35,099 bases of DNA. Origin: an uncultured Methanosarcinales archaeon. Lineage in GTDB: Archaea > Nanobdellota > Nanobdellia > Woesearchaeales > JACPBV01. Shown here one piece after another: positions 16,775 through 30,890 of the stretch (position 1 is its first letter; the number at the start of each line of letters is the position of its first letter). The notes beneath the pieces were generated by a model. The model worked only from the letters and a program-made list of their open reading frames with translations. It was not told where the DNA came from and did not search any database. Location of the stretch: the NCBI GenBank assembly GCA_964492935.1, contig CAZBLF010000010.1, positions 1-35,099 of the forward strand, given 5' to 3'. A program made the translations under genes and the position numbers.

Positions 16775-16827
16775 GTTTCTGTTATTGAAGTGCAGGTTTA
16801 ATAAACTTTGTAAAGAAAAGAAAAAAA

Positions 16828-17217
16828 GGACCAGCGTAAGCCACCTTCTGTTACCAACCATTTCTAGTCGGCCTTAGCATTGAACTAAGCGGTGTTACAC
16901 CTTGCTCCGGCCAGGTCTCGCCGTTTCATCCATTCTTCCCACAACGTCTTCCGGTTAACTCGGTTCTGTCGCCATTACCTTCACGGATTTCATCCTCGTG
17001 GGAAGGGGTCTCGTTTCGTTGCGGTTGCCGCACATCACTGCACCTCCATCCCGGGAGTGACCATACTTCAATTGTCTTGGAAGCGTTCTGATCGCTTCGC
17101 GCCAGAGAGTTGAAGTGGAGGGTGGACTTTCCTCAGTTCGAACTGCAAAATTGGCTTGACGCCATAAATCCGTAAACGAATTTAACATCGCAGGAACCGT
17201 TAGCTAAGCGCTGATCC
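16828..17217 (-). ncRNA. rnpB: RNase P RNA
   Basis: GAGGAAAGTCCACC and AACAGAAGGTGGCTTA (P4); P1 GGATCAGCG/CGCTGGTCC; P2 CTTAGC/GCTAAG; GGATGAAACGG; GGAGCAAG; followed by poly-T. Confidence 0.97.
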
Positions 17218-17252
17218 TTTAGTGTTCAGTAACTGCTTTTTCTTTAAAAAAG

Positions 17253-21808: not shown

Positions 21809-22933
21809 TTATTTCTTTTTTTCTTCTTTTTCTAACTTTTCAGGATCTTTATTGGGTTCTGCATGAGGGATTTCTTCTTGTAATTCTTCATCAACATCTT
21901 CTAGTTTTTTTGGAGGTTCTTGTTCTTTGTCTTCTTCTTGTTCAGGAGTTTCTTCTTCAGCTGGTTCCTCTTCGGTTGTGTCGTCTTCCTCTTCTTCTGG
22001 CTCTTCTTCATCCGTTTCTTCTTCTTGGTTGCCAGTGGATTTTCTGAGGAGTTCATCGACTTTTGCGTCGACATCGGATTCAACTTCGGCGGATGATTTT
22101 TTGGGTTTTTCTCCAGTAACCATGCCTTCTACTTCATCAACGACCTCTTCGCCCATCTCTTCTGTGTATTCGAGACCTTCTTCATTGGATTCTTCCTCTG
22201 GTTCTGCTTCTTCATCTTCAGGAACGTCTACCACGTCTAGATTGCCGACTTTTTCTTCTATGACTTGGACGCTTTCTTGTTTTTCTTTTTCTAATTCGTC
22301 TTGTGGTTCGTCAAATTGTTCTAATTCTGTTACGGTACCATCCGCTTCGACTAGATCTATTTCCGCCCCAGCTTTTTTTGCATCTGTTTTCTGATCGCGT
22401 TTGATGGTGTCGATTTCTTGTTCTTTATCGGTGATTGCCTTAGCGATACCTTCGAAGTCTTGGAACTTTTCTTTTAATTTGTCTTCTGGAAGATCGAAAT
22501 ACTCGAAGAATTTTTCTGTTAGTTTGATTAATCTTGTTCGTCCGAACTTTTGTCTGGTGATGTAGCCTAACTCTTCTAATTCGGAGAGATGATCGTAGGC
22601 TTTGTTGGTTCGAATTTTAATTAAATCAGCTTGCTTGATGGGATACTTGAATGCGATGACGGCTAATGTTTCTAATAATGTTTTGGAGAGTTCGGTTTTG
22701 GTTACTACCTGTCTTACGCTTTCGATGTGTTCGTCTTTTACCGTTAATTTCCAGGCATTTCCATCATCTATGATGTGGATGGAGGAGTGACGCTGTTTGT
22801 ATTCTTGTTCAAGTTCTTTTAGTGTTTCTCTAATATCTTCAGGAGTAGCTTTGGTGAAGGTTTCTAGCTCTTCTAGCGTCATTCTGCGACCCGAAGAGAA
22901 CAGTAGTGCTTCTATTTTGTATTTTAGTGTCAT
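21809..22933 (-). CDS. scpB: SMC-Scp complex subunit ScpB with long acidic tail
   Basis: IEALLFSSG, LSKTLLETLAVIAFKYPI, TEKFFEYFDL; probable start ATG 22933. Confidence 0.92.
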   Translation of the reverse strand: MTLKYKIEALLFSSGRRMTLEELETFTKATPEDIRETLKELEQEYKQRHSSIHIIDDGNAWKLTVKDEHIESVRQVVTKTELSKTLLETLAVIAFKYPIKQADLIKIRTNKAYDHLSELEELGYITRQKFGRTRLIKLTEKFFEYFDLPEDKLKEKFQDFEGIAKAITDKEQEIDTIKRDQKTDAKKAGAEIDLVEADGTVTELEQFDEPQDELEKEKQESVQVIEEKVGNLDVVDVPEDEEAEPEEESNEEGLEYTEEMGEEVVDEVEGMVTGEKPKKSSAEVESDVDAKVDELLRKSTGNQEEETDEEEPEEEEDDTTEEEPAEEETPEQEEDKEQEPPKKLEDVDEELQEEIPHAEPNKDPEKLEKEEKKK

Positions 22934-23112
22934 CAGTCCTCTTTTTCTTAATTGAATAGCAGGTATATAAATGCTGTGACGTTGTATACTCAAAGCAAAT
23001 AATTATCGAACTTTTGTTTGCTTTTCCTAATAAGCAAAGGCAATATCTATGTTCGAATATTTTTTGCCTTTGCTATAGCTGCGTGCAGGTGTAACCCCCA
23101 AGGTAAATCTGC

Positions 23113-23697
23113 TTATTCGCTTTTTGCTACTTCGTATTCATCGTCTTTCAGAGTGAGTTTTCCTTCTTTGACTTCCTGGTCTAGGAATTCCTTCAGCCGC
23201 TCTGGATCGATTCCGGAGAGCTTTTCCAGCTTCTCATAGGTGTTTCTCCCGACTGAAATGAGTACGGCAATATTATTGCGGAGCATGTTATTGAGATTAT
23301 TTTTGAGAAAGGTACTTTCGGCACGTAGTTGTTTGGCAACCATGTCTACCTGGTGGAGTTTTGCTTGGAGATCGTTGAATACTGCGGAGATGTCGCTATT
23401 TTTTAGCAGGAGCTCTGCTGGTTTTTCGATGTCAATAGAACTTGGCATGTAGTCGAAGCAGAATCCTACTAAAGTATCCATTCCTTTAGCAACCATTTCA
23501 ATTTCGACATAGGTTGAAAACAGTGATTTTTCTAGTTTCTTAGGAGGTTCGAATTTCTCATTGAGGATAGAGATATCGGAATTTTCTTTGATTTCCTCGA
23601 CAAGCATACGTATCGTTTTTTCAACGTGGGCTTTAGGTTTGCCTAGTACCTCGAGGATGGTACGCGCTCTGATGGGGTATGTTGTTGCATCTGCCAT
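23113..23697 (-). CDS. Hypothetical protein (alpha/beta domain, coiled coil, C-terminal wHTH-like segment)
   Basis: 194 aa; ILEVLGKP, FDYMPSSIDI. Confidence 0.75.
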   Translation of the reverse strand: MADATTYPIRARTILEVLGKPKAHVEKTIRMLVEEIKENSDISILNEKFEPPKKLEKSLFSTYVEIEMVAKGMDTLVGFCFDYMPSSIDIEKPAELLLKNSDISAVFNDLQAKLHQVDMVAKQLRAESTFLKNNLNNMLRNNIAVLISVGRNTYEKLEKLSGIDPERLKEFLDQEVKEGKLTLKDDEYEVAKSE

Positions 23698-23732
23698 AGG
23701 TTCTTGGAGTAAAAGTTTCTTTAAAAATATTG

Positions 23733-25517
23733 CTATCGTTTAAGGGTAAGTGTGATGGCATAGAGGGTCATGAGCACGGCGAAGAGATAGACGCCGATCT
23801 CTTTCGTTTTAAAGGTGGTTGATTCGTATACGGTGATGAAATTCCCAGTGACTGGTGGAATTTGTGATTGAGTATTTGTTGCGGTGAGGATGGTTTCTGG
23901 GTTTTCTTGTAGAGTATTCGTGATTGTTGGTTCTTCACTTTCACCGATGATCTGTATTGTACGTAGCACTCGCTTTTCTTTTTCGCCATCATCCACCGTG
24001 TAGCGGAGCATGAGATTGTAATCGCCAGCCGGAATATCTTCTAGATTGTTTTTGAATACGGTTTGCTTGGATCCTCGTTTCTCAATGAAGACTTCCTTGA
24101 GGTTCGATTCGCGTTCCCCAGAATAGGAGGTGCTGCCTTTGAAGAGATAGCTCCACATTTTCAGATTGTGATGGCGGTTATCGTTATTTTCTATGTAGAT
24201 GGTGGTTTCTATCTGGCTATTGCTCCTGGCGTCGGTAGGATACTCAGTAATGTCTACGAGGAGATCGGGTTGCTGTTTGGCAAGGCTTTCTTTGGGGCAG
24301 ATGGAGTCTTGGGTGCCTGCAACTTCAATCTGAAATGCGGTTTCGTCGCCTAGTCCTTGCGCTTTGAGGATGTAGGTGTCGGATTCATAGTCTAGATCGC
24401 AATTAGGTTTTATTTGCACCGGGATTGTGATTTCGTAATGGGTGAAGATATCTGGAAGATAGACTTTGGATTGTTTTGTTATTTTATGCTCTTCGTTTTC
24501 CATCCACAATGCCACGACCTCTTTTTTTGTGTCGCCTTTGTACACTTTTACTTTGGCACGTATGGTCTGGCCGAAGGATGCTGTCTCATCAGACCCGAGA
24601 TCGTATATTTTTTCTATTATGATATTGGAATCGTTTCCGAGTGGATCGTCCAAAAGGGTGAAGATTTGTTGGATTGAGTTGCTTGCTAATTCTTGATCTT
24701 CGCAGTTGACTTCCATTTGTGCTGTAAGTAGATAGGATTTTCCTTTTTTGAGATTAGGAGAGTATTTAGATGAGGATTTTCTTGAGGTTACGGTGCGATT
24801 GGTCCAGGGTTTGTAGGATTTTACGAAGTTTCCGGTAAGGTCGCGAATGGATGCGGTGGCAGAGGTGATTGTTTTATTGCCATACTGTTTTTTAGCTCTC
24901 AGCTGCCATTCGAATTCGTCTTGGGGTTCGAAAACGGTTTTATTCATCAGGACTTCAAGGTACCAATCGCATCCGGTGCTGGGTGTGGCGATTCTTGAAC
25001 CGTTGTTGGGTAGTCCAGGTGTGGCGTTAGCAGGGGAGAAGGAATTGTTGAATCGAGCGTGTGAGAGGCCTTTGATGGATTGAGAGTAGGTTGCGGAATC
25101 TATGAGTTGAAGATTATTGTCATATAGATTGAAGGTTTCCCCTGGATTATTGAGACCGTTTCCCATCGCATCATCAGTGACGTAGAGTTTTATTGTGCTT
25201 GGATTAATGTCGAAATTATTGTAGACTCGAGTAGCGTAATCGGTGATGATGGCGAAGGCATGTCCCGGAATGATGGTTCCAAGTCCGAGAAAGAGGCCGC
25301 CCTCTAGTGTATCGTTTTCTTTTTCATCTCCAATATACCAGCCTGACACGTTTACGGATTGGGATTCGTTGTTGTAGAGCTCGATCCATTCGTTGAGTGA
25401 GTCGTCCTCAAATGGATCGGCATGGATTTCGTTAATCAGAACTGTTGCGTCACCTACACTTGATGCGAGAATGAATATGATTACTTGAAATCTTACTTTG
25501 CTGAGCGAGATCGTGAT
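23733..25517 (-). CDS. Lamin-tail-domain surface protein with Ig-like regions and C-terminal TM anchor
   Basis: Frame is open upstream of the called GTG and encodes VLINEIHADP...NEWIELYN...VNVSGW; TPGLPN; C-terminal TM + KR; ATC at 25517 is the best start candidate. Confidence 0.8.
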   Translation of the reverse strand: MTISLSKVRFQVIIFILASSVGDATVLINEIHADPFEDDSLNEWIELYNNESQSVNVSGWYIGDEKENDTLEGGLFLGLGTIIPGHAFAIITDYATRVYNNFDINPSTIKLYVTDDAMGNGLNNPGETFNLYDNNLQLIDSATYSQSIKGLSHARFNNSFSPANATPGLPNNGSRIATPSTGCDWYLEVLMNKTVFEPQDEFEWQLRAKKQYGNKTITSATASIRDLTGNFVKSYKPWTNRTVTSRKSSSKYSPNLKKGKSYLLTAQMEVNCEDQELASNSIQQIFTLLDDPLGNDSNIIIEKIYDLGSDETASFGQTIRAKVKVYKGDTKKEVVALWMENEEHKITKQSKVYLPDIFTHYEITIPVQIKPNCDLDYESDTYILKAQGLGDETAFQIEVAGTQDSICPKESLAKQQPDLLVDITEYPTDARSNSQIETTIYIENNDNRHHNLKMWSYLFKGSTSYSGERESNLKEVFIEKRGSKQTVFKNNLEDIPAGDYNLMLRYTVDDGEKEKRVLRTIQIIGESEEPTITNTLQENPETILTATNTQSQIPPVTGNFITVYESTTFKTKEIGVYLFAVLMTLYAITLTLKR

Positions 25518-26260: not shown

Positions 26261-26371
26261 TGTCGATTGATGATTTTCTAAGGTTTTTCCTTTATATATC
26301 TTTGTGTTGTTACCATTGTCAAATGCACCTAAAAGCTTTAATAGCCAAAAGTTGCAAATAGTTGTTACGGG

Positions 26372-27211
26372 GTGAGTATTATAAGTTTTTTAGATATGTT
26401 CAAGAAACAGGATAAGGGCGTTACTCTAGATTTACCTCCAGAACCTCCGAAACTGCATGAAGTTACGGGCAGTAAAGGAGGAGAGCTTGATGGTGAATTG
26501 TTGCCTCGACACCTGAAACCACATCATGACGAACATCATGAGCTTCCACCGTTGCCGGATTTAGATGATGATTTGCCGGAATTGGAACCGCTTTCTACTG
26601 GAGATCATGGTTTGAAAACGGTTGATGATTTGAAACTTGATGATTTGCCGCCGTTGCCTTCACCGGAAGATACGCTTGATCATGATCTTCCGGAGATGCC
26701 GAAACCACCTGTTCATCATACTGCTCCACATCACTTTCCTAAACCGTCAGAGCATCATGATCACTTTCCGAAACCACCTGCACATCATGAGGCACCTCAC
26801 TTTCCTAAACCACCTGTGATGCCGCCTATGCCGAAACCACCTGTTCATCCTGATCACATTCCTAATCCTCAGGCGATGCCTCCACCGAAACCTATGAGAA
26901 CTCCTCATAAGGCTATTCAGGAAGGACCTTCGTTTGGTGATTTGTTTCCAGAGGATCATCCTGCGATGCAGGGTGGGGCGCAAGATAAGATTATTCGTGA
27001 TGATGCTGCATTCTTGTCGGTGTTATCGTTCGAGCGTGTTTTAGGAGATATGCAGACGTCGCGCGAAGATTTGAAGCGGATACATCACTATGTTTCCGAT
27101 ATTTCGGGATATGTGGGCGATGAGGATAAGGCATATGCCTCGTTTAGAGAGGATATTATTGATATTCAGCAAAGATTAGCAAAAATGGACAAGGTGTTAT
27201 TTACCGCATAA
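26372..27211 (+). CDS. Pro/His-rich protein with C-terminal 65-aa coiled-coil domain
   Basis: Low-complexity linker with HFPKP/MPKPP repeats; C-terminal domain aligns with the next two ORFs. Confidence 0.85.
   Translation: MSIISFLDMFKKQDKGVTLDLPPEPPKLHEVTGSKGGELDGELLPRHLKPHHDEHHELPPLPDLDDDLPELEPLSTGDHGLKTVDDLKLDDLPPLPSPEDTLDHDLPEMPKPPVHHTAPHHFPKPSEHHDHFPKPPAHHEAPHFPKPPVMPPMPKPPVHPDHIPNPQAMPPPKPMRTPHKAIQEGPSFGDLFPEDHPAMQGGAQDKIIRDDAAFLSVLSFERVLGDMQTSREDLKRIHHYVSDISGYVGDEDKAYASFREDIIDIQQRLAKMDKVLFTA
26696..26893 (+). repeat. Intragenic imperfect repeats (cc(g/t)aaacc; [HM]-FPKP/PKPP units)
   Basis: Six PKP-containing units. Confidence 0.7.
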
Positions 27212-27226
27212 CTAGAGGTGACCAAG

Positions 27227-27448
27227 ATGGATGACGGAGTATTCGTAAAAATTGATGATTACAAATCTGTTTTAGATATTGTGGCAAAGGTGAAAAGTAA
27301 AATTCATGATGCTCGCAGTACGATAGAGCAGATTAAGCATCTGAAGCACCGAGAGGATACTGAATTGGGTGCATGGGGACAGAAGCTTGATGATATTGAA
27401 GGAAAAATGGATGATTTAGACAGAACGATGTTTAGACCTCCTGCATAG
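27227..27448 (+). CDS. Small coiled-coil protein (VFVKIDDY...)
   Basis: SD GAGGTGA 27215-27221 before ATG 27227; heptad pattern. Confidence 0.85.
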   Translation: MDDGVFVKIDDYKSVLDIVAKVKSKIHDARSTIEQIKHLKHREDTELGAWGQKLDDIEGKMDDLDRTMFRPPA

Positions 27449-27450
27449 CT

Positions 27451-27831
27451 ATGGCGAAACAGAAAAAAGATGAAGCATTGTACGTGGGATTGCAGGGTGC
27501 ACCACAGATTAGAAGGGTAGTGTTAACTAATTTAAAGGATACGCTCGAGATGCTGAAGGCGTTCGAGGAGTTTAAGCAGATTAGAAAGCAGAAGCATAGT
27601 TCGTTTACGACGTTAAAAGGCCATGTTGAGGAGATTACGCAGCTTGTTGGTAAGTTGAGAGGTGCGTTGCCAAAAGTTAAACAGTCAACGCTGAAAAAAG
27701 AGGAGCGGCCGGTTAAGATTGCTCCGAAGCCTAAACAAAAAGCTGCTCCTACTCCGATTGCACATTCTGAATTGGACAAAATCGAGAATGAATTAGATAC
27801 GATTGAACATCAATTGAATGCGATGGGGTAA
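27451..27831 (+). CDS. Coiled-coil protein with basic linker and acidic C-terminal helix
   Basis: 126 aa, 2 nt after the previous stop. Confidence 0.85.
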   Translation: MAKQKKDEALYVGLQGAPQIRRVVLTNLKDTLEMLKAFEEFKQIRKQKHSSFTTLKGHVEEITQLVGKLRGALPKVKQSTLKKEERPVKIAPKPKQKAAPTPIAHSELDKIENELDTIEHQLNAMG

Positions 27832-27871: not shown

Positions 27872-28006
27872 GTGGGGATGCCGGAGTGGTCAAACGGGAT
27901 AGACTCAAATTAGTTAAGTGATGAGCGTCAAGCGATGATTTTGCTATCTACTTGGGCGAAATCTATTTCCTTAGTGGATACGGGGGTTCGAAACCCTCTC
28001 CCCACA
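27872..28006 (+). tRNA. tRNA-Leu(CAA) with 51-nt intron (27910-27960) at position 37/38
   Basis: Acceptor GTGGGGA/TCCCCAC+A; D-arm CCG/CGG; anticodon stem ATAGA/TCTAT, CAA at 27906-27908; long variable arm; GGTTCGAAACC. Confidence 0.93.
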
Positions 28007-28809
28007 TTTTTTCTTTTATAGTTTTTATTTACATAATCAATACACTCGTTGAGTTCACCCTTTTTGTACTCGTTGAGTCTAAATCCTATGTTTTCTCGAA
28101 ACTTTAGTATATTCATTCTATTTCCCAATATTCGAAATCCTTGGCTGTAGGTCTTACTTCCATCCTTTTGTAGAGATTGGAAACTTGGTGAGTCGATTTT
28201 GCTGCACTTCACCGAGAAGCTTTCGGTAAGATGTTTAATCTGCGATATGAAACCAGTTAGCTCTTTCTGATATTTCTTAATTTTAGTCATGTGGAACCGA
28301 GCCTCTCTGATAAAACGATTTCTTTTTAGTTTTATAGTCGCTAGCTCGTCATCAAAAATACCTTGCAAGAATGCTCTTGCTAGTGGTTTGGAGCGCACTA
28401 TCCACTGAGGAACTGAGAATACTTTTTTGGTTTTGTTCCCTATTGGGGCCCCCAGGGCGTAGACATACCTACCAAATAGACAGTCATTCACTTGTAGCAG
28501 GTAGCTGATTCCCTTACTTTTTCTCATCCTTAGAGGTAAACTTGATTCCGGTAGAGAATAGTTCTCCTTTATCAGTTTCTTGAGATTCGAGAGGTCCTCA
28601 ATCGTTCCTGCAAAACGACACGTAAATAGGGCATCAAGATTGCCATCGCCCATCACTTTTGCCACCATATATGCCGAGACGCGAGCAAACTTGGTCTCTT
28701 GCAGTAGGGGTAGCCATCTCCTTTTCTTAAGACGGTCAAATTGCTTTTTTTGTGAAGATTGATACGTTTTCATCACTGCAGACATATCCAAAATTACGTT
28801 ATTTTTCAT
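27928..28809 (-). CDS. Free-standing two-motif LAGLIDADG (DOD-type) endonuclease-like protein
   Basis: YMVAKVMGDG and AFLQGIFDDE motifs; VPQWI; FRENIGF; SD GAGGTG. Confidence 0.85.
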   Translation of the reverse strand: MKNNVILDMSAVMKTYQSSQKKQFDRLKKRRWLPLLQETKFARVSAYMVAKVMGDGNLDALFTCRFAGTIEDLSNLKKLIKENYSLPESSLPLRMRKSKGISYLLQVNDCLFGRYVYALGAPIGNKTKKVFSVPQWIVRSKPLARAFLQGIFDDELATIKLKRNRFIREARFHMTKIKKYQKELTGFISQIKHLTESFSVKCSKIDSPSFQSLQKDGSKTYSQGFRILGNRMNILKFRENIGFRLNEYKKGELNECIDYVNKNYKRKNVGRGFRTPVSTKEIDFAQVDSKIIA

Positions 28810-29021
28810 TTTAATTTCCCCACCTCATCTTGAGATTTCTTTCGGTAGCGTGAAGAAATCTTTGGGTTTGCGGTTTGGGCTGATTAGCGAAACTCTATAA
28901 TTGCTTTTAGTGTCGAGGACCGAAGAGTATTATTTAAGAGTTTTGTGTGTCCTCTCCGCATTTTTTTCTTTTTTTTCTTTTGAGGGATATGTTTATATAT
29001 TGGAGTCTCGATAATAGGGGG

Positions 29022-29900
29022 ATGAAACATAATGTAAAGACGACTTCAATTTTATTGGGGCTCTTTTTTGTTGCTCAGATTATTGGATTATTTGTGATTC
29101 AGAATTATATTGATGTTGATGCTGCTCGAGAGGGCGAATTGGTGTTTAAGGAGCTGCCCTTCGATTTGGAGCGGCCGCCGATTGAGCAAAGTACATCCTT
29201 TCTGTATATTATTGCTGCGATCTTAGTGGGGACGTGTTTAGTATTGTTGTTGATTAAATTTAACAAAACTACTTTATGGAAAGTCTGGTATGGATTAGCG
29301 GTGGTGATTTGTTTGACGATTTCGCTGGCTGCTTTTGTTCCTGCAATTAGTGCGATCGCGGTAAGTGTTGTTGTTGCATTTTACAAAGTTCGACGAAATA
29401 ATCCGATCATTCATAATTTGACTGAGCTTTTTATTTATGGCGGATTGGCAGCTATTTTTGTTCCGGTGATTAATGTGGTGTCGGCGATCTTCTTATTGTT
29501 GGCGATATCGGTGTACGATTATATCGCGGTTAACAAGGTTAAACATATGGTGACCATGGCGAAGTTTCAGACGAAGGCGAAGGTTTTTGCGGGCTTGATG
29601 GTGGGTGGTGTGAAGCCAGGGAAGAAGTTAAAGAAATTGCCAGCTCCTCAAGCAGGCAGGGTGGCAATTCTAGGTGGTGGAGATATTGGTTTTACTCTTT
29701 TATTTTCTGGAGTTATTTTTAAGGGATTGATTTTGAGTTCTCCCGGTACTGCATTTTTGAAGACGCTTTTGATTCCGGTTTTTGCTACGCTTTTTTTGGG
29801 AGCGCTTTTATTTCTTGGAAAGAAGGGAAAGTTTTATCCTGCGATGCCTGCGATCACGGCTGGTTGTTTGCTGGGCTATTTCGCAACGTTGGCTTTCTAA
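29022..29900 (+). CDS. Presenilin/SPP-family (A22) intramembrane aspartyl protease
   Basis: YD (SVYDYIAV), LGGGD, PAMP; multiple TMs; ATG 29022 after TTTATATA. Confidence 0.92.
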   Translation: MKHNVKTTSILLGLFFVAQIIGLFVIQNYIDVDAAREGELVFKELPFDLERPPIEQSTSFLYIIAAILVGTCLVLLLIKFNKTTLWKVWYGLAVVICLTISLAAFVPAISAIAVSVVVAFYKVRRNNPIIHNLTELFIYGGLAAIFVPVINVVSAIFLLLAISVYDYIAVNKVKHMVTMAKFQTKAKVFAGLMVGGVKPGKKLKKLPAPQAGRVAILGGGDIGFTLLFSGVIFKGLILSSPGTAFLKTLLIPVFATLFLGALLFLGKKGKFYPAMPAITAGCLLGYFATLAF

Positions 29901-30721
29901 AGTTGTTGCATGCCTTCAATTAGAGTTCGTTGTCCCTTGTCGACGGAATAAGAAAGTGGATTGATGACCATTCCATCTCTTGCAGCGATGGTTTGGACGC
30001 CGGTTGCTTTATGGATTTCTCTGACTTGATGGAGTGGATCTGCATCCAGAACGCTATTGCCGAAATGGGTTAGAATTGCGAGGCGTGGTTCGACCGCAGT
30101 GATGAGGTCGATTGCATCTTCGATGCTTAGATTATCTTGCGCTGCTTGTTTGTTAACTCCCGGAACATTCATGATGAGGATGTGGATTCCCTTGAGATCT
30201 TTGATGAGATCGTCCGTTAATGAGGTATCTCCGGTGTAGCCGAGAGAAAAGTAGGGTGTATGGAAGGTGAAGCCGATGGACGGGGTGTCGCCGTGTTGAG
30301 TAGTGAGTGCTACAATCTCAATTGCATTTATTCCAATGCGTTGTCTTGGATTGAGTACTAGTGTTTTTTCTAGAAAGTTTTTGGTTCTTGGTTGGAGGAT
30401 TGCTGGAAGTTCTTCCGTACCTTGCACTACGGATTGTTCTCCTACTAATACTCCTTGTTTATCTACTCCATGGACGGTCATCGCATCTATGAGTACATTG
30501 AGATCGTTACAGTGGTGCAGATGACGATGCGTAACAAAAATTCCGTTGGTGCCGCGCACATTGACTCCGCAGAGTGCGGATTGCATGAGTGCATTGGGAC
30601 CGGGATCTATATGAAACTGATTTTCGTCTACTTGTAGTACGAAACCGCCAGAACTTAATCTACCGCGTCCTACAACCTGACTTCCTTGGCCAGTACCTAA
30701 GAAAACAATCGATGATTTCAC
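29897..30721 (-). CDS. Metallo-beta-lactamase-fold hydrolase
   Basis: FLGTG, IDPGP, THRHLHH, YTGDT, LTHFG; probable start GTG 30721. Confidence 0.88.
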   Translation of the reverse strand: MKSSIVFLGTGQGSQVVGRGRLSSGGFVLQVDENQFHIDPGPNALMQSALCGVNVRGTNGIFVTHRHLHHCNDLNVLIDAMTVHGVDKQGVLVGEQSVVQGTEELPAILQPRTKNFLEKTLVLNPRQRIGINAIEIVALTTQHGDTPSIGFTFHTPYFSLGYTGDTSLTDDLIKDLKGIHILIMNVPGVNKQAAQDNLSIEDAIDLITAVEPRLAILTHFGNSVLDADPLHQVREIHKATGVQTIAARDGMVINPLSYSVDKGQRTLIEGMQQL

Positions 30722-30890
30722 GTTTACCCCCCACGAGTAGGAAGCCGAAGCGGTTAATAAATATATCGATACTAGAAAAATCGTTTTTGAGATTATGAAT
30801 GTGTTTTGATTGTTGAAGAATATCGCTTCTTTCCTTTCCAGTTGTGAAAAGTGCAAATTTGACGTAATTAGGCGAAACCTTTTTAAAGAA

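Follow-up and report, generated by a model that had tools for sequence, protein, structure and literature searches.

An undescribed coiled-coil operon kept by nearly all sampled Nanobdellota, with a possible role in membrane tethering

Results

A three-gene operon for small coiled-coil proteins

The window analysed here is a stretch of 35,099 nucleotides (nt; contig CAZBLF010000010.1 of assembly GCA_964492935.1, positions 1 to 35,099, forward strand) from an archaeon that GTDB places in the order Woesearchaeales of the Nanobdellota. It contains three consecutive open reading frames, ORF1, ORF2 and ORF3, which form one operon. An earlier reading of the window, here called the original prediction, had described them as three coiled-coil paralogs that assemble into an obligate hetero-oligomeric bundle registered by a SNARE-like central layer of Glu, Glu and Lys. 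Our analysis identifies a nearly phylum-wide, undescribed operon; new are its two-gene ancestral state, the statistics on the proposed central layer (position 39), a test of ORF3 homology against reversed controls and a register-specific analysis of charge pairing. Nanobdellota belong to the DPANN archaea; their genomes are very small, and only a few of the core genes specific to their lineages are understood.

The assignment to one operon is supported by intergenic gaps of only 6 nt (ORF1-ORF2) and 2 nt (ORF2-ORF3), by a Shine-Dalgarno-like site ahead of ORF2 and by a gene order that is kept in relatives. We refer to the domain common to the C-terminus of ORF1 and to ORF2 as X. The features of the operon, with lengths in amino acids (aa), are as follows.

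26291-26298, plus strand: TATA-box-like TTTATATA, about 75 nt upstream of ORF1, a candidate archaeal promoter
26372-27211, plus strand: ORF1, 279 aa; hydrophobic-basic N-terminal motif, PPxPP motif, long Pro/His/Asp-rich linker and C-terminal X domain
26372-26410, plus strand: ORF1 residues 1-13 (MSIISFLDMFKKQ), membrane-targeting-like motif
26426-26452, plus strand: ORF1 residues 19-27 (LDLPPEPPK), conserved proline motif
27008-27202, plus strand: ORF1 residues 213-277, X domain, paralog of ORF2 by hhalign
27215-27221, plus strand: Shine-Dalgarno-like GAGGTGA, 5 nt before ATG 27227 of ORF2
27218-27448, plus strand: ORF2, 76 aa; X domain alone, one long helix; its invariant E46 is alignment position 39
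27451-27831, plus strand: ORF3, 126 aa; K48 is alignment position 39
27499-27666, plus strand: ORF3 residues 17-72, long helix in the AlphaFold2 model
27667-27762, plus strand: ORF3 residues 73-104, basic Lys/Pro-rich linker
27763-27825, plus strand: ORF3 residues 105-125, C-terminal amphipathic helix

Since the Shine-Dalgarno-like GAGGTGA sits before ATG 27227, ORF2 probably starts there and comprises 73 aa, which is also the form present in protein collections. As had been proposed, none of the three proteins has a transmembrane anchor, the Kyte-Doolittle mean over 19 residues reaching 0.87 at most.

ORF1 and ORF2 share a helix, ORF3 is a separate family

The original prediction was built on an ungapped alignment of 65 residues between the C-terminus of ORF1, ORF2 and the N-terminus of ORF3. 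This alignment could be reproduced in full, including 10 identities between ORF1 and ORF2, the residues E, E and K at position 39 (codons at 27122, 27353 and 27592) and D, D and R at position 61. The heptad pattern described as continuous is matched by a single unbroken helix in AlphaFold2 models of both ORF2 and ORF3. The ORF2 family alignment gave one helix over residues 15-72, preceded by an unstructured VFVKIDD, with a mean predicted local distance difference test score (pLDDT) of 84.1. An alignment of 50 ORF3 rows gave a helix at 17-72, a low-confidence linker and a second helix at 105-125 (mean pLDDT 80.0). In these monomer models the long helices of ORF2 and ORF3 occupy equal alignment positions, from 8 to about 64.

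At the level of single proteins the similarity is weak, with pairwise BLASTP E-values among ORF1, ORF2 and ORF3 of 0.56, 0.054 and 0.18. The BLOSUM62 score of 41 for ORF1 and ORF2 was reached by none of 5000 plain shuffles and by a fraction of 0.001 of those that preserve the heptad. With 6 identities each, ORF1/ORF3 and ORF2/ORF3 gave heptad-preserving fractions of 0.046 and 0.012. For comparisons between families we used alignments of 33 members each for ORF2 (A1), the last 75 aa of ORF1 (A2) and ORF3 (A3); two unpublished loci, L004 and L010, were excluded from all alignments. Comparison of A1 with A2 by hhalign yielded a probability of 99.5% (E 4.3e-23) over 72 ungapped columns, in a register identical to that of the original prediction. 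A1 against A3 reached 41.8% over 25 columns that land on the C-terminal helix of ORF3, and A2 against A3 reached 28.2%, both with scores of 23-26. Overall, scores against the ORF3 family ranged from 17 to 26 with probabilities of 6-43%, while reversed-alignment controls scored 15-22; A1 against reversed A2 gave a score of 21.9 and a probability of 28%. Because the reversed controls score alike, the ORF3 matches are indistinguishable from coiled-coil background.

An ungapped profile-profile scan of X against ORF3 placed the originally proposed register first of 93 offsets (4.8; next -8.5), and first again for each of three X subfamilies separately. Only 0.001 of 2000 heptad-preserving column shuffles reached 4.8, and the best reversed score was -3.3. 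Judged from their family profiles, then, the C-terminus of ORF1 and ORF2 are true paralogs, far beyond chance, and to this extent the claim of three paralogs holds. It does not extend to ORF3, which scores no better than reversed controls and appears to be a separate family, a partner matched to X in helix length and register; a distant homology with X is not proven.

The unit is nearly phylum-wide and was probably two genes in its ancestral state

Six-frame searches of related genomes found ORF2 in 57 of 61 and ORF3 in 56 of 61, including the unpublished G005 and G013, and in most of them a second ORF2-like match lay just upstream, at the C-terminus of a longer ORF. The genes co-occur in relatives, as the original prediction requires: all 33 published loci taken from the window's order have ORF1-ORF2-ORF3 in unchanged order and orientation, and so do L004 and L010. 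In other orders of the class, one X-domain protein followed directly by an ORF3 homologue was found in 18 of 18 fetched loci. These single-copy X proteins are 127-195 aa long, carry the domain at the C-terminus and are closer to neither of the profiles A1 and A2 (E 1e-17 to 7e-26 with both). As these orders hold one X-domain protein plus ORF3, comparison of the loci argues that the ancestral unit is two genes, an X protein and ORF3. Among the lineages sampled, no order but that of the window showed the ORF1/ORF2 duplication.

In a sample of 201 Nanobdellota genomes, the A1 profile matched 193, some of them of only about 0.5 Mb. Five apparent absentees were searched again with broader profiles, whereupon two (G142 and G112) turned out to hold a divergent triad. 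Neither the X nor the ORF3 profile matched G072 or G028 (each 98% complete), and G226 gave a borderline X row only (E 0.00998, within a 574-aa ORF), its ORF3 profile unmatched. A search with a 9-row alignment yielded 80 further kept loci, with the source labels Woesearchaeota, Nanoarchaeota, Nanobdellota, Nanoarchaeia, unclassified 'archaeon' and 'uncultured Methanosarcinales'; the last stands on many TPA_asm assemblies and we take it to be a placeholder. Against 1.84 billion representatives, a further profile (A4) matched 4013 clusters at E <= 0.001 and 2087 at E <= 1e-10. Among the 150 matches listed, the domain is C-terminal or makes up the entire protein, and the sole source name, obtained for 2 of 10 clusters looked up, was 'hypothetical protein'.

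That the unit is undescribed, as first proposed, is borne out by the searches for relatives. A word-indexed homology search with ORF2 matched nothing but itself, and in Pfam and NCBIfam neither the ORFs nor the 33-member families drew more than generic coiled-coil matches under threshold, for example Med9 in 14/33 and NPV_P10 in 10/33. Profile searches of the PDB were topped by an SMC coiled coil (E 0.041) with the ORF2 family and by keratin (E 0.11) with the ORF3 family. With Foldseek against the PDB, the ORF2 model had no match at all and the ORF3 model none at E <= 0.001. A search of the ESM Atlas gave only unnamed Nanobdellota/Woesearchaeota clusters, with structural rows that are generic coiled coils below the naming bar. 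No description of the X/ORF3 family was found in print by full-text literature search; a Nanobdellota preprint (10.64898/2026.05.13.725050) speaks in the part covered only of unnamed 'uncharacterized proteins', and its supplements, outside that coverage, may list the family.

A hydrophobic-basic N-terminus and oppositely charged linkers

The N-termini of ORF1 homologues and of single-copy X proteins consist of a hydrophobic pair followed by a Lys/Arg run, e.g., MGLFSFLSKKK. A regular expression for a hydrophobic pair and a basic pair matched 30/33 ORF1 homologues and all 18 single-copy X proteins, and a PPxPP-type motif is present in 23/33 and 12/18, respectively. In six of the 33 ORF1 homologues (L006, L007, L008, L011, L012 and L014, all family-level relatives) the N-terminal motif recurs inside the protein, in the middle of the Pro-rich linker, for instance as KKGLFSFLK, which suggests two membrane contact points per chain. 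The ORF1-type linker spans 65-297 residues with a median Pro fraction of 0.20 and is net negative in 28/33 ORF1 homologues and 15/18 single-copy X proteins; the linker of ORF3 is net positive in 44/50.

The SepF protein encoded in the same genome begins with MGFFDKIK, similar to the ORF1 motif. Archaeal SepF is described, in the part of PMC8178401 that covers its architecture, as a C-terminal core joined by a flexible linker to an amphipathic helix that lies at the N-terminus and binds the membrane.

Position 39 is conserved in X and ORF3, the E/E/K triplet is not

To follow the proposed layer through evolution, residue statistics were taken from 99 non-redundant ORF1/ORF2/ORF3 triads.

Position 36: ORF2 K 93/99; ORF3 R 79, K 15; ORF1 C-domain K 62/99
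Position 39: ORF2 E 99/99; ORF3 K 89/99 (R 4); ORF1 C-domain E 45, K 21, Q 15, R 6
Position 61: ORF2 D 90/99; ORF3 K or R 84/99; ORF1 C-domain D 91/99

Conservation of the layer holds for two of the three chains, as position 39 is invariably E in ORF2 and nearly always K in ORF3; all 18 single-copy X proteins likewise have E. Since position 39 varies in ORF1, there is no conserved E/E/K layer, and the triplet is particular to a minority of genomes. What the alignments point to instead is a contrast between E in X and K in ORF3 at a heptad d position, conserved across the phylum. In two of the 18 loci of other orders ORF3 has E while X still has E, with no compensating change.

A family relationship with SNAREs found no backing. 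The Pfam models PF05739 (SNARE) and PF12352 (V-SNARE_C) were unmatched by ORF1-3 of the window at E <= 1, and no SNARE relative emerged from the PDB and Foldseek searches. V-SNARE_C matched 2/33 ORF2-family members far below cut-off (best E 0.0046), and syntaxin/SNAP-25 rows appeared with the ORF3 model only at E 7-10. The SNARE analogy is thus unsupported as a family claim, and as a mechanism only partly supported.

Charge pairing favours an ORF1:ORF2 pair over ORF2 self-pairing

Attractive and repulsive g-to-e' charge pairs were counted over the 99 triads, on the assumption that the coiled coil is parallel and in register, its a positions at 8+7k and its d positions at 11+7k (ORF1C denotes the C-terminal domain of ORF1).

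ORF1C:ORF2, 397 attractive, 73 repulsive
ORF1C:ORF1C, 370 attractive, 50 repulsive
ORF2:ORF2, 226 attractive, 258 repulsive
ORF2:ORF3, 105 attractive, 125 repulsive
ORF1C:ORF3, 68 attractive, 113 repulsive
ORF3:ORF3, 54 attractive, 122 repulsive

For ORF1C:ORF2, the in-register arrangement was the best of 9 register shifts from -7 to +7 (next best 231/132), and this pair outscored ORF2 self-pairing in 94/99 triads. Self-pairing of the single-copy X protein is favourable, with 82 attractive and 10 repulsive pairs. The key change concerns positions 21/26, which are K/E in the ancestral state and K/K in ORF2 (K in 87, K or R in 93 of 99); ORF1C has mixed residues at position 21 and E or D at 26 in 69/99. 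On these counts, charge pairing appears to favour an in-register parallel ORF1:ORF2 pair over ORF2 self-pairing and argues that ORF2 may need a partner other than itself. The pattern would fit a homo-oligomer that turned into a charge-matched hetero-pair after duplication.

Discussion

We see about an even chance (probability roughly 0.5) that this one operon encodes a membrane-tethered coiled-coil scaffold specific to Nanobdellota. The X protein would run from a membrane-binding motif of hydrophobic and basic residues through a PPxPP motif and a flexible linker, acidic and rich in Pro, to a C-terminal helix of about 58 residues. ORF3 would contribute a helix as long as that of X, then a basic linker rich in Lys and Pro, and at its C-terminus a short amphipathic helix. 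X would have been duplicated in the window's order (Woesearchaeota-type), ORF1 keeping the tether and ORF2 only the helix with the ancestral invariant residues, while turning self-repelling. The helices of ORF1 and ORF2 would pair parallel and in register, with K21 and K26 of ORF2 opposite acidic or neutral residues at positions 21 and 26 of ORF1. ORF3 would be added to this rod, and the rod, suspended from the inner face of the membrane, would position a client, for which the FtsZ/SepF divisome or the chromosome are obvious candidates.

A module of two or three genes that is present in 193 of 201 sampled genomes likely serves a basic cell-biological task. Its architecture of membrane motif, long flexible arm, coiled-coil rod and basic-tailed partner points to an undescribed archaeal tethering system, and the Woesearchaeota-type duplication would be a clean natural example of a homo-oligomer becoming a charge-matched hetero-pair.

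Several observations weigh against such a scaffold. Self-pairing of ORF1C (370/50) is as favourable as the hetero pair, so that heterodimerisation would not be obligate on the ORF1 side. ORF3 has no favourable g-e' pairing with either paralog in the proposed register (105/125 and 68/113); the g-e' rule itself presupposes a parallel, dimer-like geometry, and the charge-pairing analysis does not place ORF3. Mean-field direct-coupling analysis of the 99 triads (Meff 85) gave no signal and is uninformative on inter-chain contacts, because even intra-helix i+3/i+4 contacts were not recovered. For the N-terminal motif, the helical hydrophobic moment comes to a modest 0.22-0.45, and its membrane binding is argued purely by analogy. 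Lastly, the neighbours are housekeeping genes that vary between orders, and synteny offers no consistent functional partner.

The bundle put forward by the original prediction would be a parallel 1:1:1 or four-helix assembly, its register and obligate hetero-assembly set by a buried ionic layer at position 39, and would act in membrane remodelling or host contact. Like the SNARE four-helix bundle, the system has helices of about 60 residues, an unbroken heptad, a conserved polar residue at a core position and several different chains, here encoded together. Position 39 is a heptad d site of an unbroken helix with E in 99/99 ORF2 and 18/18 single-copy X proteins and K in 89/99 ORF3; position 36, an a site, is likewise polar and conserved (K in 93/99 ORF2, R or K in 94/99 ORF3). 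The helices of ORF2 and ORF3 cover equal positions (8 to about 64), and the register of the bundle is the best of the 93 ungapped profile offsets. Beta-branched residues fill most d positions, a feature that under the Harbury rules speaks against a plain dimer. Nevertheless, we regard this bundle as unlikely. The polar residues are E/K rather than the Q/R of SNAREs, one of the three chains, ORF1, lacks a conserved layer residue (E in only 45/99 triads), and E stands uncompensated opposite E in 2/18 loci of other orders. The K/K/R layer at a36, beside d39, would be strongly positive, and g-e' pairing of ORF3 is not favourable. None of the proteins has a transmembrane anchor or a SNARE family match, V-SNARE_C staying below cut-off in its 2/33 members (best E 0.0046) and Foldseek giving syntaxin/SNAP-25 at E 7-10 for ORF3 and nothing for ORF2. 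A variant without the ORF1 residue seems rather improbable to us. In it, X and ORF3 would assemble in parallel and in register into a hetero-oligomeric coiled coil, and a conserved, buried ionic layer between E of X and K of ORF3 would key the assembly. On this reading the unit would be an essential membrane-anchored organiser, since almost all Nanobdellota genomes retain it, even those of about 0.5 Mb. If true, the E(X)-K(ORF3) layer would count as a prokaryotic counterpart to the zero layer of SNAREs, and X/ORF3 might be, e.g., the missing membrane-to-divisome or membrane-to-chromosome link in episymbiotic archaea.

Scaffolding could also be cytoplasmic, as in a PopZ-like hub whose N-terminal motif binds a client protein and not lipid, whose C-terminal helices oligomerise, and whose acidic Pro-rich ORF1 linker and basic ORF3 linker drive a network or condensate. 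PopZ has a Pro/acidic linker followed by a helical oligomerisation domain, and the ORF1 layout of a short N-terminal motif, a variable, disordered Pro/acidic linker of 65-297 residues and a C-terminal helical oligomerisation domain agrees with it, as do the opposite linker charges (ORF1 negative in 28/33, ORF3 positive in 44/50). We judge this hub improbable, because the hydrophobic pair at the extreme N-terminus with its Lys run, doubled in 6/33, resembles membrane-targeting sequences, among them the N-terminus of the genome's own SepF, and because Pfam scans revealed no PopZ homology. The three products might also form no joint complex at all, each co-transcribed small coiled-coil protein self-associating separately and the common features being generic coiled-coil properties. 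Weak BLASTP values (E 0.56, 0.054 and 0.18), an ORF3 homology with X that is not shown and the favourable self-pairing of ORF1C speak for such separate assemblies. We find them hard to credit given strict adjacency in 51/51 published loci across the phylum, matching helix lengths, unfavourable self-pairing of ORF2 (226/258) and an ORF1C pairing that is favourable and register-specific; moreover, the absentees G072 and G028 match neither profile, and G226 shows its borderline X row only.

Among known systems, the proposed membrane-tethered scaffold comes closest in layout to SepF (PF04472), as ORF1 and X share with it a short hydrophobic or amphipathic N-terminal motif, a flexible linker and a C-terminal domain that is predicted to oligomerise. 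In contrast to SepF, the C-terminal domain of ORF1 is one long helix instead of an alpha/beta core, its linker is much longer and Pro-rich, and the core model PF04472 was not matched by ORF1-3 in the Pfam scan. The genome carries a genuine SepF at another locus as well as two FtsZ genes (FtsZ1 and FtsZ2). To our knowledge, SepF is the only FtsZ anchor in these archaea. As a free single-helix coiled-coil protein of about 75 aa, ORF2 is reminiscent of ZapB, and ORF1, with its membrane-proximal end, Pro-rich tether and distal binding domain, of ZipA. No homology to ZapB, ZipA or PopZ is detectable by Pfam scans, and the hosts are archaea with FtsZ1, FtsZ2 and SepF.

ESCRT-III (Snf7, PF03357) was considered as well. 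X has a comparable short hydrophobic-basic N-terminus, and the C-terminal amphipathic helix of ORF3, past a flexible linker, superficially resembles an MIT-interacting motif. The chains here are single helices, unlike the hairpin core of ESCRT-III, and PF03357 was not matched by ORF1-3. Since neither PF03357 nor the MIT domain PF04212 was found in the 84.8%-complete genome, while control genomes do match, the idea was rejected.

Neighbouring genes and further features of the window

Across 20 loci of the window's order, PCNA is a neighbour in 12, RNase J in 11, a divergent radical-SAM gene in 6, and ScpB and a lamin-tail-domain protein in 5 each. Neighbours in the 18 loci from other orders include TFE-alpha (13) and, in 10 loci each, alanyl-tRNA synthetase and an M50 peptidase. 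In the window itself, a set divergent from ORF1 occupies 21809-25349 on the minus strand, with ScpB (21809-22993), a 194-aa protein of no family (23113-23697) that could be a divergent ScpA, and a 538-aa protein (23733-25349) with a weak lamin-tail-domain match. Of 20 related loci, 5 have ScpB with no-family neighbours upstream of the triad, and in two of these (L017 and L027) the full three-gene ScpB set with a lamin-tail-domain protein recurs.

Forty nucleotides past ORF3 lies a tRNA gene, with which the unit ends.

27872-28006, plus strand: intron-bearing tRNA gene, Rfam RF00005

The match (40.7 bits against a gathering score of 29, E 6.8e-7) covers 135 nt, which implies an intron of about 60 nt; the gene escaped both ARAGORN, which reported no tRNA for this stretch, and the gathering scan of the whole window. 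A 293-aa ORF (27928-28809, minus strand) overlaps the tRNA with its 3' end. It matches only the intein/homing-endonuclease portions of intein-containing models for RtcB (E 1e-19) and RFC (E 4.5e-10), both far below cut-off, and looks like a free-standing homing-endonuclease-like gene adjoining the intron-bearing tRNA. Elsewhere, the window contains an archaeal RNase P RNA (16827-17218, minus strand; RF00373, 117 bits), a presenilin/signal-peptide-peptidase-like membrane protease (28947-29900, plus strand; PF06550, E 5.5e-13) and an RNase Z-like metallo-beta-lactamase (29897-30856, minus strand).

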